From IMG/VR virus record IMGVR_UViG_2671180299_000021: a stretch of DNA of 6,620 bases; one strand, given 5' to 3'. Every line of letters starts with the position of its first letter. The first letter of the stretch is position 1. The position numbers and the translations under genes are program-made. Positions 1-6,620 of the stretch are shown here, in pieces. The notes under the pieces are model-generated. The model did no database searches. It saw only the letters and a program-made list of their open reading frames with translations, and was not told where the DNA came from. Source of the stretch: a virus. Its lineage: Duplodnaviria; Heunggongvirae; Uroviricota; Caudoviricetes.

Positions 1-168
1 GTACTCAGTCTGAAAATGTTCGGGCTGGGGCTGCCGGTGATGCTGAAGGAATACGGACTGAATTACGAGAAGCGCCATACCAAACAGGGGATACAGACCA
101 ACCTGACGCTGAAAGAGGAAAGCTACGGCGACTGGCTGCCAAAATGTGACGACCCTGCAACAACCTGA
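1..168 (+). CDS. 3' end of an unidentified protein-coding gene (last 55 codons; start is upstream of the window)
   Basis: Frame 1 is open from base 1 to TGA at 166-168 (...MLKEYGLNYEKRHTKQGIQTNLTLKEESYGDWLPKCDDPATT*), followed within 20 nt by a GC hairpin plus T8 terminator. Product not recognised. Confidence 0.5.
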   Translation, partial: VLSLKMFGLGLPVMLKEYGLNYEKRHTKQGIQTNLTLKEESYGDWLPKCDDPATT

Positions 169-184
169 CCCTCATGACTCATCT

Positions 185-210
185 GACCGGCATCTGCCGG
201 TCTTTTTTTT
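185..210 (+). terminator. Rho-independent terminator (GACCGGC-atct-GCCGGTC stem followed by T8)
   Basis: Seen in sequence: 7-bp GC-rich inverted repeat at 185-191/196-202 immediately followed by eight T (203-210), placed 17 nt after the stop codon at 166-168. Confidence 0.65.
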
Positions 211-225
211 ATCCCTGAATTCCCC

Positions 226-356
226 GCAGGTGAACAATCCACTGTTCATCCTTCACCGTGTATTTACCCGTTATCACACTGAAATTAAAAGAGAAAAACG
301 AAAGGTGAACAGTGTGAACAATCAAATCAAAAAAAACTTTTTTCGCCCTGTGTGAT
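226..356. repeat. Tandem repeat unit 1 (~130 bp) with GTGAACA heptamers in both orientations and an A8-C-T6 tract
   Basis: Aligns base for base with 406-534 at an exact 180-bp offset. The 20-mer AAAGGTGAACAGTGTGAACA at 301-320 is identical at 481-500. GTGAACA at 230-236, 305-311, 314-320; inverted TGTTCAT at 244-250; A8 at 329-336 and T6 at 338-343. Confidence 0.6.
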
Positions 357-405
357 TTCAGTGCGGAGGATTAATCCCCTGCACAAGTCACACCGGCAGA
401 ATGCC

Positions 406-534
406 GGAGGTGAAGAATCGAATGTTCACCCTTCACCCATTATTCACCACCTATCACTCTGAAATAAAAGGAGAAAACAGAAAGGTGAACAGTGTGAACA
501 GTTCTTTCGAAAAAAAATTTTTTTCCTGTACGAT
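406..534. repeat. Tandem repeat unit 2 (~130 bp), diverged copy of 226-356
   Basis: Roughly 80% identical to unit 1 by eye. GTGAAGA at 410-416, TGTTCAC at 423-429, GTGAACA at 485-491 and 494-500, A8 at 510-517 and T7 at 518-524. Preceded by hairpin CCGGCA-gaa-TGCCGG (393-407), echoing the CCGGC stem of the terminator before unit 1. Confidence 0.6.
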
Positions 535-815
535 ATAGCATCAATCCAAGTAAAAATGCGTTTTCATTTCACATTAACTTACAGCCATTGGTATACGATT
601 AGGTATACGTACAAAAACTGAATTAAACAAAATCATTAAAAATCAAAGCAATACAGTATTTATTCAAACTCCGCCAGCCCACCAATCATGATTGGACGGT
701 GTAAGGACAACACCAACAAAAACAGGAAGTTAGCAGTCTCAGCAGGACACCGACCAGACGGTGAGGAGACAAAAAAGGATACGCAAAGGAGCCGCGGCTC
801 TCAAGTGTGAAAGAA

Positions 816-838
816 GCCCGCAAATTGCGGGCTTTTTT
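816..838 (+). terminator. Rho-independent terminator (GCCCGCA-aat-TGCGGGC followed by T6)
   Basis: Seen in sequence: perfect 7-bp GC-rich stem at 816-822/826-832 with a 3-nt loop, then TTTTTT at 833-838. Lies 55 nt upstream of the ATG at 894. Confidence 0.7.
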
Positions 839-893
839 ATTGATCAGTCAACAATAAACAGTAACCGAATGAGAATTTAATAAGGATATTCAT

Positions 894-2816: not shown

Positions 2817-3371
2817 TTATTTATCTCCTGCCGGAAACCTCTGATACAAAGTCGATACGCCAACATCATAGATAATCGCAACTTTCTGGCGCGGAACTCC
2901 TGATGCAATTAATCGTCCGGCTTGTGCCCATTGTTCTGGTGTAAGTTTGGGACGACGTCCACCAATTCGTCCCTGTGCGCGAGCAGCTTCCAGTCCAGCT
3001 TTTGTTCGTTCAACAATCAGTTCTCGTTCCATTTCAGCCAGGGCCCCCATCACATGAAAGAAAAAGCGCCCCATTGGGGTACTGGTATCAATTGAATCCG
3101 TCAGACTACGAAAGTTGATGCCTCGTTCGCGCAACTCCTCCACCAGCACGACAAGATGCCGCATACTGCGCCCCAGTCGGTCCAGTTTCCAGACCACCAG
3201 CGTATCGCCTGCCGATAATGTCCTGAGCAGTTTTTTCAGTCCCGGCCTTTCGGACTTTGTACCGCTTATCTTGTCTTCAAAAATCAGCTCGCATCCTGCA
3301 CAGTTCAGCGCATTACGTTGTAGATCTGTGTTCTGGTCATTTGTTGACACACGTACATAGCCAATAAGCAT
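2817..3371 (-). CDS. pin: Serine-recombinase DNA invertase Pin (Hin/Gin/Cin/Pin family), 184 aa
   Basis: Translation MLIGYVRVSTNDQNTDLQRNAL... carries the resolvase/invertase N-terminal catalytic motif (YVRVSTxxQ, Ser10) and a C-terminal HTH region (VAIIYDVGVSTLYQRF). Length of 184 aa fits Pin. GGGAG Shine-Dalgarno sits 8 nt upstream of the ATG at 3371; the track ORF starts 12 codons earlier at 3407 with no SD. Lies next to an invertible tail-fibre segment. Confidence 0.95.
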   Translation of the reverse strand: MLIGYVRVSTNDQNTDLQRNALNCAGCELIFEDKISGTKSERPGLKKLLRTLSAGDTLVVWKLDRLGRSMRHLVVLVEELRERGINFRSLTDSIDTSTPMGRFFFHVMGALAEMERELIVERTKAGLEAARAQGRIGGRRPKLTPEQWAQAGRLIASGVPRQKVAIIYDVGVSTLYQRFPAGDK

Positions 3372-3397
3372 GGTAGATCTCCCTGACAAAAGCAGGA

Positions 3398-3910
3398 ATG
3401 ATGCCATTTGCTCGTTATTTCTGCATTTTCATAAACGTTGGTTTGGGAGAAGGTTCGGCATTACCCGTTGGTGTGCCTGTTCCGTGGCCTTCCGCCACTC
3501 CGCCAACGGGGTGGCTAAAATGTAACGGAGCAGTATTTTCTTCTGAAAAGTACCCAAATCTGGCAAAGGCTTACCCAACATTAAAATTACCAGATTTACG
3601 CGGTGAATTTATTCGTGGCTGGGATGATGGGCGCGGGATTGACTCTGGTCGTAACTTATTATCTGCACAGAATGATGCAATTCAGAATATTGTTGGTTCT
3701 TTTGGGCGTACCCAGCTTTTTAGAGACGTACTTAGTTCAGGGCCATTTAGTCAACATGGGCAAGTATTATCTACAGGTCTAAAGGAAGCCGAAATTATTG
3801 AGGGTTATGGCGCTTATAACTGGACATTCGACGCATCTCGCTCAGTTCGCACAGCATCTGAAACCCGCTCCCGTAACATCGCCTTTAATTATATTGTGAG
3901 GGCTGCATGA
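3398..3910 (+). CDS. Alternative tail-fibre C-terminal (receptor-binding) cassette, currently in the silent orientation (stfE-like); functional coding starts at the crossover site near 3434
   Basis: Translation contains the conserved tail-fibre C-terminal signature (...PTLKLPDLRGEFIRGWDDGRGIDSGRNLLSAQNDAIQNIVGSF...). The frame enters from the crossover site (NVGLGE). No independent SD; the upstream ORF portion overlaps the pin start in antisense. Confidence 0.8.
   Translation: MMPFARYFCIFINVGLGEGSALPVGVPVPWPSATPPTGWLKCNGAVFSSEKYPNLAKAYPTLKLPDLRGEFIRGWDDGRGIDSGRNLLSAQNDAIQNIVGSFGRTQLFRDVLSSGPFSQHGQVLSTGLKEAEIIEGYGAYNWTFDASRSVRTASETRSRNIAFNYIVRAA
3426..3451. other. 26-bp recombination (crossover) site, pin-proximal (pix/gix/hix-like)
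   Basis: TTTTCATAAACGTTGGTTTGGGAGAA is an inverted copy (21 of 26 positions identical) of the site at 5371-5396. Both encode N-x-G-L-G-E in the tail-fibre reading frames, and the central dinucleotide is TT here against AA at the partner. Confidence 0.7.
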
Positions 3911-4512
3911 TAAGTAAAGCTGTATTAAATAATGAACTCATCGCCACAAAGGCCGGAGACATTACCGTTTATAATTATGATGGTGAAACACGGGAATATA
4001 TTTCCACATCAACTGAATATCTTGCTGTGGGTGTTGGTATCCCGGCATGTTCCTGTTTAGATGCTCCTGGCTCATATAAAGCTGGTTATGCAATTTGCCG
4101 TTCTGCAGATTTTAACTCATGGGAATATGTGCCAGACCATCGCGGTGAAATCGTCTATAGCACCGAAACAGGAGAATCAAAAGAAATCACAGTTCCGGGT
4201 GATTACCCTGAAAATACAACCACTATCGCCCCGTTAACGTCATACGATAAATGGGATGGTGAGAAATGGGTGACCGATACTGAGGCACAGCATAACGCCG
4301 CAGTAGACGCGGCAGAAGTACGGCGCCAGTCACTGATTGATGCTGCTATGGCTTCCATTAGTCTGATTCAGCTGAAATTGCAGGCCGGGCGGAAGCTGAC
4401 GCAGGCAGAAACAACCCGGCTTAACGCTGTGCTGGATTACATTGACGCGGTGACTGCAACAGATACCAGCACCGCGCCGGATGTCATCTGGCCTGAACTA
4501 CCGGAGGCGTAG
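3907..4512 (+). CDS. Tail fibre assembly protein (Tfa family), partner of the silent cassette, 201 aa
   Basis: ATGA start/stop overlap with the preceding cassette (translational coupling). C-terminus ...NAVLDYIDAVTATDTSTAPDVIWPELPEA is the typical Tfa chaperone motif. Confidence 0.85.
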   Translation: MISKAVLNNELIATKAGDITVYNYDGETREYISTSTEYLAVGVGIPACSCLDAPGSYKAGYAICRSADFNSWEYVPDHRGEIVYSTETGESKEITVPGDYPENTTTIAPLTSYDKWDGEKWVTDTEAQHNAAVDAAEVRRQSLIDAAMASISLIQLKLQAGRKLTQAETTRLNAVLDYIDAVTATDTSTAPDVIWPELPEA

Positions 4513-4927
4513 GCCATTCAATATCTGGAGCACTGGAGGTATCAACCAGTTCCAGTGCGTCCAGATAATCCAGCCATAAATTATATTGTTCCAGCTCGTA
4601 ACCTTTCAGACGACCAATAGCAGCTTTGCCAGGCCACTGATGGGTATTGATGTAGGTATTGACTTCTGAAACCAAAGATATCTTTTTCATTTCAGCCGCC
4701 AGCATCTCATCCTCTTTTGAAGGCGGCGGGGAATTAATCCATATTGGCCGTCCTGAACTGTCAGCGCCAATTTCTTTCCCTTCTGGATGCAGCCCAAGAA
4801 ATTGCTCATATGTTTCTCTGGTAATTTCAATAACATCATCAGGAAGCGTTCCCGCATCCTCATATTCTGGAAACAATTCTTGCAGATAAAAACTTTTACT
4901 TGCGGGTGAAAAGAATACTGAGTTCAT
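4484..4927 (-). CDS. Tail fibre assembly protein (Tfa family), partner of the currently expressed tail fibre, 147 aa
   Basis: C-terminus ...LWLDYLDALELVDTSSAPDIEWPTPP is the Tfa signature. Starts 2 nt after the stf stop on the minus strand. Confidence 0.85.
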   Translation of the reverse strand: MNSVFFSPASKSFYLQELFPEYEDAGTLPDDVIEITRETYEQFLGLHPEGKEIGADSSGRPIWINSPPPSKEDEMLAAEMKKISLVSEVNTYINTHQWPGKAAIGRLKGYELEQYNLWLDYLDALELVDTSSAPDIEWPTPPVVQAR

Positions 4928-4929
4928 TC

Positions 4930-5673
4930 TTACCGTCCAATGATTAACGCTGAGACGCTGGTATCTGAAGGAAAGGCTGCATTCAGTGGTTTGTCGACTT
5001 TGAACACAATCGTATTATTCCCCCTGACAGCGGCAAAAGAACAAACCGCCGTCGCGTATGAACCTGTAATATTACTGGATACACCACCATAAGCTGTTGT
5101 TGATACCAGAGGGATAACGCCCAGCACCTTATTAGGAAATACAAAGGGCAATGTGGCTGTGGCAATATAAGACTTATTAGAACCTGTAATGGCATAAGCA
5201 TTATCAGTCATTCCATTCATCGCCACTGGACCGCTTATACTTACAGTAACCATCTGAATGATTAGCCCGTCAGGTTGACGAATCACAAAATTTCCATTGC
5301 CACCAGTAACCGTCCAGAAAGACATATCAGGGATTTGGTTTTCCCCGTTGCCCACATTTCGTTTTGCCGCTTCTCCCAAACCAAGGTTTTCGAGAGCCGT
5401 TTTCACCGTGCCATCAGATTTGATATCGCCAAACGGATTCTTGCGGCTTAACAGCAGCGCACGAAGCGCGGTAAGCAGCTGGTCATGCCGCCCCTTCTCC
5501 AGGCTGGCACCGGATGCCTCCACCACGCTGCAGAGTTCTTCCTGCAACATGTCAAAGTAGTCATCATCCAGATCGGTGGCAGGTGTGCCGGTCTGGGGGT
5601 TACCACGGGTAAAACCGTTCTTACCCGCGCCGAACTTATCCTTCTGCGCGGTTTTCGTGTCTATACGATGCAT
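4930..5673 (-). CDS. Side tail fibre protein, 247 aa: constant N-terminal part (5397-5673) fused to the variable C-terminal cassette in the expressed orientation
   Basis: GGAG Shine-Dalgarno 6 nt upstream of the ATG. Crossover site at 5371-5396 encodes [10 protein letters not shown] at about aa 93-102. Starts 3 nt after the upstream ymfQ-like stop. Confidence 0.85.
5371..5396. other. 26-bp recombination (crossover) site inside the tail-fibre gene (constant/variable junction)
   Basis: TTCTCCCAAACCAAGGTTTTCGAGAG has imperfect dyad symmetry around a central AA and is the inverted partner of 3426-3451. Resembles published gix/hix/cix-type sites as recalled from the literature (family consensus of the type TTnnCnnAAACCnnGGTTTnnGnnAA). 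Confidence 0.7.
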
Positions 5674-5676
5674 GGA

Positions 5677-6620
<944 letters not shown>

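Follow-up and report, generated by a model that had tools for sequence, protein, structure and literature searches.

A tandem iteron array at 224-523 as the probable crr of an ssrA-integrated satellite prophage of the P4 type

The repeats at positions 224-523 of the window (the whole 6,620-base stretch of DNA that we analysed) are almost certainly the crr of a P4-type satellite prophage at ssrA, that is, an iteron array for the alpha initiator, to judge from sequence comparison with the reference phage. A preliminary description of this DNA had offered, among other readings, an iteron-like protein-binding array; this option is correct, the sites being those that X51522 and X05623 mark as type I iterons in the crr of P4, and the BLASTN-type comparison it had proposed identified the region as the crr of satellite phage P4. 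The array is real and non-random; it is known already, from the annotation of the reference phage.

The crr and its type I iterons

A megablast comparison with phage records aligns window 1-523 to satellite phage P4 at 94.5% identity; for crr alone the figure is 95.7%, over the 300 nt that match positions 4291-4590 of X51522. The P4 records X51522, X05623 and NC_001609 annotate, over the homologous stretch, the end of the alpha gene, 'talpha' and crr, which GenBank describes as the "cis required region for replication" and in which it marks 'crr 120bp direct repeat' twice and 'ori type 1 repeat' ten times, the latter being octamers (TGTTCACC), five in each 120-bp repeat. In the alignment these P4 features map one-to-one onto the window with a constant offset of +10, which arises after indels of 9 bases and 1 base located just before and in the terminator. 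The window covers just the last 55 codons of alpha, with ori and the remainder of the gene lying outside it; residues 1-48 of this piece are identical at 48 of 48 positions to residues 53-100 of PDB 1KA8 (E = 5e-28), the solved structure of the P4 origin-binding winged-helix domain. The alpha stop codon is at 166-168 and crr begins at 224. Between them lies the terminator t-alpha, found by a terminator scan, with a fold of -14.1 kcal/mol and with the P4 'talpha' at the homologous position; it is kept, with altered loop bases, in most relatives in which alpha abuts crr. The features of this stretch are as follows.

1-168, + strand: 3' end of the gene for alpha (primase-helicase-origin-binding), last 55 codons and stop, from alignment with the P4 alpha CDS
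185-210, + strand: t-alpha, the rho-independent terminator of alpha, a stem-loop at 185-202 followed by T8
187-200: hairpin CCGGCATCTGCCGG, fold z = -5.5, the first of the two hairpins and the same as the alpha terminator
224-523, no strand: whole crr (cis replication region), very probable from homology to the P4 crr
224-343, no strand: crr 120-bp direct repeat unit 1, from the repeat finder, homologous to the P4 feature 'crr 120bp direct repeat'
229-236, - strand: type I iteron, exact TGTTCACC, from P4 annotation and motif scan
243-250, + strand: type I iteron TGTTCATC, one mismatch, through a C-to-T change at 249 private to the window
251-257, + strand: CTTCACC half-iteron abutting 243-250, its columns invariant or nearly so in 18 sequences
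261-268, + strand: type I iteron TATTTACC (in P4, TATTCACC), with a C-to-T change at 265 private to the window
304-320, - strand: type I iteron pair 9 bp apart, GGTGAACA at 304-311 and TGTGAACA at 313-320
329-343, no strand: A8-C-T6 tract ending unit 1, conserved in relatives and without annotated function
344-403, no strand: inter-unit spacer of 60 bp, with lineage-specific palindromes at 361-384 and 393-407
393-407: hairpin CCGGCAGAATGCCGG, fold z = -5.2
404-523, no strand: crr 120-bp direct repeat unit 2, from the repeat finder, 100% identical to P4 unit 2
409-416, - strand: type I iteron variant GGTGAAGA, from P4 annotation and motif scan
423-437, + strand: type I iteron TGTTCACC at 423-430 with CTTCACC at 431-437
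441-448, + strand: type I iteron TATTCACC, from P4 annotation and motif scan
484-500, - strand: type I iteron pair, GGTGAACA at 484-491 and TGTGAACA at 493-500
510-524, no strand: A8-T7 tract ending unit 2, read from the sequence, majority fraction 0.92

Applied to the 6620-base window, a gap-free repeat finder recovered the direct-repeat family 224-343 and 404-523, with a start-to-start spacing of 180. Tandem Repeats Finder missed this family: the 180-bp period is absent from its output, in which only the 9-bp iteron pair (the period-9 array of the unit 2 pair) and an 11-bp chance repeat are reported. The two units are identical at 96 of 120 positions (80%), and identity between the copies collapses past 343 and 523. 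The preliminary description had given the units as about 130 bp long at a 180-bp offset; the offset stands and the length is corrected to 120 bp, the longer comparison from 226-356 giving 99 identities in 131 positions. The 20-mer AAAGGTGAACAGTGTGAACA that it saw conserved in both units is found at 301-320 and 481-500, and its A/T tracts are found as A8-C-T6 at 329-343 and A8-T7 at 510-524. The GTGAACA dyads are present as described, except that the left arm of the second reads GTGAAGA, and both of the hairpins noted ahead of the units fold stably but are 206 bp apart, out of the 180-bp register. The one ahead of unit 2, at 393-407, is lineage-specific and not kept in diverged relatives.

Each crr unit has five annotated octamers, which occur in both orientations and have the consensus TGTTCACC; it also has a CTTCACC that abuts one of them, and it closes with an A/T tract. 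At the ten P4-annotated positions, four sites are exact, five have one mismatch and one (261-268) has two. All six exact copies of GTGAACA in the window fall within 230-500 (expected 1.1), a number that 0 of 200 shuffles reach, and with up to one mismatch to TGTTCACC 9 of the 14 matches in the window fall within 229-500, the observed iteron count for this octamer again being reached in 0 of 200 shuffles. The CTTCACC half-iteron at 251-257 is without annotation in the P4 records. The G variant at 409-416 is retained in 17 of 18 aligned sequences, the other (L055) having GGTGAGGA. Of 22 sequences, the window is the only one with the two C-to-T changes, at 249 in TGTTCACC and at 265 in TATTCACC; both strike the cores of unit 1 iterons and may weaken these sites, and they are compatible with slight decay of a resident prophage whose unit 2 is intact.

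Conservation of crr among Enterobacterales

Relatives were collected through a scan for the 17-mer GGTGAACAGTGTGAACA, with one genome per species, which returned 110 loci. About 30 of these, all from Enterobacterales, carry crr-like units, and their genera include Enterobacter, Citrobacter, Raoultella, Klebsiella, Serratia, Pantoea, Pectobacterium, Cedecea, Leclercia and Atlantibacter. Many of the 110 matches come from unrelated phyla and have no crr-like unit; these were treated as due to chance. In most of the 30 related loci, a crr unit begins about 50 nt past the alpha stop. Seventeen loci have two units and are 59-66% identical to the window over a 380-nt region. In an alignment of 18 sequences, the majority fraction averages 0.95-0.97 for the iterons, where the invariance of the one pair contained in the 17-mer seed is partly by construction and the other iterons lie outside the seed, and 0.92-0.93 for the A/T tracts (0.93 at 329-343); it is 0.80-0.82 for the rest of the units, 0.59 for the spacer and 0.48 downstream. 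The repeats are thus not the unconserved filler that the preliminary description had named as the case against it, the iterons and the A/T tract being kept in 17 diverged homologues.

The spacer varies in sequence as well as in length, the repeat period ranging from 151 to 181 bp among relatives, and an exact 180-bp period is a property of the P4 lineage and not general to crr. Across genera, orthologous units are alike at 0.81 and 0.84, and paired units inside one element at 0.66-0.75 (0.80 in the window). Since orthologous units are more alike than those within an element, the duplication is an old one, with both copies maintained since.

Departures from the two-unit arrangement were also observed. 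Seven loci (L023, L045, L038, L112, L019, L007 and L055:5534) have a single crr unit, with a 5' part like unit 1 and a 3' part like unit 2, the outcome that recombination at the 17-mer iteron pair common to both units would be expected to give, and another (L027:5677-6000) retains a second unit whose iterons have decayed. These natural one-unit variants, together with L027, suggest that one crr unit can suffice. Four loci (L039, L068, L094 and L038) have roughly 0.7-1.4 kb of additional DNA separating crr unit 1 from the alpha stop, and in them unit 1 is not preceded by the usual terminator hairpin; the gap between alpha and crr in these elements may be a hotspot for the insertion of accessory genes.

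A further reading, which we regard as possible but rather unlikely, is that crr holds functional determinants beyond the annotated alpha iterons. Pointing towards it are the A7-8(C)T5-7 tract at the unit ends, about as conserved as the iterons, the persistence across genera of unit-specific signatures such as GGTGAAGA in unit 2, and a floating spacing (151-181 bp) together with the collapse of some elements to one hybrid unit. The A/T tract could act in communication between ori and crr, for which a bend, an element for unwinding or a site for a host factor might be needed, and units 1 and 2 could be non-equivalent; the P4 records X51522, X05623 and NC_001609 mention neither a function of the tract nor a non-equivalence of the units.

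The right end of the element and other readings of the repeats

Past crr, the window runs through the right end of the satellite into the chromosome. Two features are placed here.

590-609, + strand: tandem GGTATACG(ATTA)GGTATACG with a 12-bp period, candidate integrase arm sites read from the sequence
663-685, + strand: attR core at the satellite's right end, duplicating the final ~23 nt of ssrA (tmRNA)

The match to E. coli begins inside the 3' end of ssrA (in L114, ssrA is at 1161-1523 and the match at 1501-1681), and 46 satellite-free E. coli genomes match the window at 99.7-99.8% from exactly 663. The copy of the ssrA 3' end and these satellite-free matches from 663 indicate that the satellite sits at ssrA and that 663-685 is attR, which places crr about 140 bp inside the right end of the element. 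ARAGORN finds no tRNA or tmRNA gene in the window, the piece of ssrA being only about 23 nt long. Positions 686-844 are native ssrA-ypjA intergenic DNA, and a hairpin with a T-run at 810-838 closes this ssrA-downstream stretch. The junction of the satellite side with the DNA from 845 onwards was found in no complete E. coli genome of the collection.

Beyond this junction, three ORFs lie downstream of ssrA, at 894-1925 (+, 343 aa), 1977-2321 (+, 114 aa) and 2406-2618 (-, 70 aa). They have no match in Pfam or PADLOC; in 46 E. coli genomes they follow ssrA directly, next to an e14-like remnant. A gene for a Pin/Gin-type serine invertase (2817-3407, - strand; Resolvase and HTH_7) stands beside a segment of about 1.9 kb that is bounded by 20-nt inverted repeats at 3433-3452 and 5370-5389 and holds opposed genes for tail-fibre C-terminal parts and tail-fibre assembly; window 2817-5673 is an ordinary invertible host-range switch of the e14/Mu type. 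Further on, a full-length Rfam match to isrC (150 bits, 6305-6427) coincides with the 5' end of orfA of an IS3-family transposase (6273-6620), and the IS abuts the start of a ymfQ-like gene of the Mu Gp48 family (5677-6288), which suggests a prophage remnant truncated by the IS.

The proximity of the repeats to this boundary invites a reading of them as arm-type integrase or excisionase sites of the attP region, which the preliminary description had offered as an arm-type recombination region: they lie some 140-440 bp from the att core at 663-685, and the P4 crr directly adjoins the attP arm region. We consider this very improbable, for the crr octamer recurs, unlike arm sites, in an ori cluster about 4-4.7 kb away in relatives, and the annotated arm repeats of P4 have different sequences and lie downstream of crr. 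Moreover, crr is common to P4 and the present ssrA-site element, whereas the downstream att region is not conserved: homology between the window and P4 stops at 523 because the attP region of P4, which integrates at leuX, is a different one. A separate candidate arm pair is also present, at 590-609, with its copies of GGTATACG at 590-597 and 602-609, some 55-75 bp ahead of the att core. The ssrA-associated P4-like relatives L038 and L023 have comparable tandem pairs, and the geometry resembles that of P4, where two tandem 12-mer arm repeats are found 54-77 bp upstream of the attP core. This pair would be a likelier arm site than the crr repeats.

We give equally little credit to the view that the two units represent small RNA genes or some structured RNA. 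Inverted iterons can indeed be drawn as hairpins, a T-run ends each unit, and a fold with z = -2.2 is obtained for the minus strand of unit 2. Among the z-scores for both units and both strands (-0.98, -0.15, -0.12 and -2.17), however, the other three lie between -0.1 and -1.0, and the value of -2.17 reflects the inverted iterons; the T-runs at the unit ends have no G+C-rich stem before them. No promoter-like site is seen in or beside the units on either strand. At a permissive E-value Rfam gives nothing above noise in 185-540, the sole overlapping row being mir-4520 at 338-404, with 23 bits against a gathering score of 90, and RNAalifold gives a covariation term of +0.52 and a compensatory change in 1 of 46 pairs, its predicted stems being the invariant inverted iterons. 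The small-RNA option is thus left without an Rfam match, a promoter-like site or covariation, and the Rfam and covariation analyses that the preliminary description had suggested for it both came out without an RNA signal.

Least probable of all is that the units encode small paralogous peptides. As first described, ORFs are present at 146-355 and 401-538 in one and the same frame, and in the P4 RefSeq a GeneMark 'hypothetical protein', P4p05, overlaps unit 2. Yet the window ORF frame meets stops in unit 1 of 15 and in unit 2 of 16 of the 17 diverged homologues, and no other frame is open in all 17, which bears out the earlier argument against a peptide and supports conservation at the level of DNA. 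The count of codon differences that had been given in its favour (about 3 synonymous against about 17 non-synonymous) is closely reproduced, with 3 synonymous, 16 non-synonymous and 21 identical codons, so that the changes from copy to copy are mostly non-synonymous. ORF 146-355, furthermore, has its start inside alpha and would read through the alpha terminator, and P4p05 (NC_001609; L116 673-1008) runs from crr unit 2 into and across the attP core. P4p05 is very likely a false gene call, and the two small ORFs of the window are incidental. Read as a record of selection, the alignments show that it acted on the octamers and not on any reading frame or RNA fold.

The paired ori and comparison with known systems

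If 224-523 is the crr of a P4-type element, a second cluster of the same octamer is expected on the far side of alpha, as in P4, where replication starts at ori and not at crr. In a relative that is 97% identical over window 1-844 (L003, from E. coli strain 201609), six exact copies of TGTTCACC are found at 3391-3494, 4.7 kb from its crr and with alpha between; six further diverged loci reach far enough to show an iteron cluster as well, at a distance from crr of about 4.0-4.1 kb. In strain 201609 the same DNA forms the right end of a complete P4-like element. This element encodes psu, an ogr/delta-like protein, an HTH regulator and an Icd-like protein, and its primase-helicase gene of 2334 nt ends just before crr. 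The cluster of TGTTCACC across alpha from crr in the 201609 element is the ori/crr layout of P4.

For P4, the type I iterons of both ori and crr are reportedly bound by alpha, crr is said to be required in cis even though ori is the start site, and alpha is reported to be able to bridge the two. On this model, alpha (a primase and SF3 helicase with a C-terminal winged-helix origin-binding domain) would bind the crr iterons of the present element and also the same iterons in ori, about 4-5 kb away past the alpha gene. The crr would be needed in cis for alpha-dependent initiation at ori, with the element replicating as phage or plasmid, and bridging of ori and crr by alpha oligomers would be the likely route at this locus. 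The binding of alpha to crr and the cis requirement are taken here from record annotation, secondary citations and the P4 literature in general. Alpha has been described as binding the P4 origin repeats through its winged-helix domain and then unwinding and priming (PMC4234260, which cites Ziegelin & Lanka 1995 and Yeo et al. 2002 for alpha at the P4 origin), and crr has been described as essential for the replication of P4 phasmids (bioRxiv 10.64898/2026.03.30.715334).

The main value of these results lies in annotation, in that they identify the right end of a P4-like satellite prophage, with alpha, crr and attR at ssrA; the two small ORFs of this stretch, and P4p05 in the P4 RefSeq, should not be called genes. 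The identification of crr raises no new question. The comparative crr data, which span the conservation of the iterons and the A/T tracts, the variable spacer and the natural one-unit variants, are a modest by-product for work on P4 replication or on P4-based delivery vectors.

The closest known system is the crr of P4 itself, which has the same two 120-bp direct repeats, 60-bp spacer and ten type I iterons at the same positions, follows directly after the alpha terminator, and has a unit 2 that is base-for-base identical. The window differs from it by thirteen substitutions, mostly in unit 1 and the spacer, among them the two private changes at 249 and 265, and past 523 it carries the att region of an ssrA-integrating lineage, whereas P4 has its own attP. 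The P4 ori shares the TGTTCACC octamer with crr, and the same winged-helix domain of alpha would probably bind at both. The ori of L003 has its six exact iterons mostly in direct orientation, within about 100 bp and beside A/T-rich DNA; crr, by contrast, consists of a 120-bp module present twice, whose iterons point both ways and include degenerate variants. Among iteron plasmids, P1 incA and F incC are secondary iteron arrays that exert negative control of copy number and are dispensable for initiation. By general description crr can be likened to them, as a second initiator-binding array that stands apart from the origin and can pair with it through the initiator, but it differs from both in being annotated as required in cis for replication.
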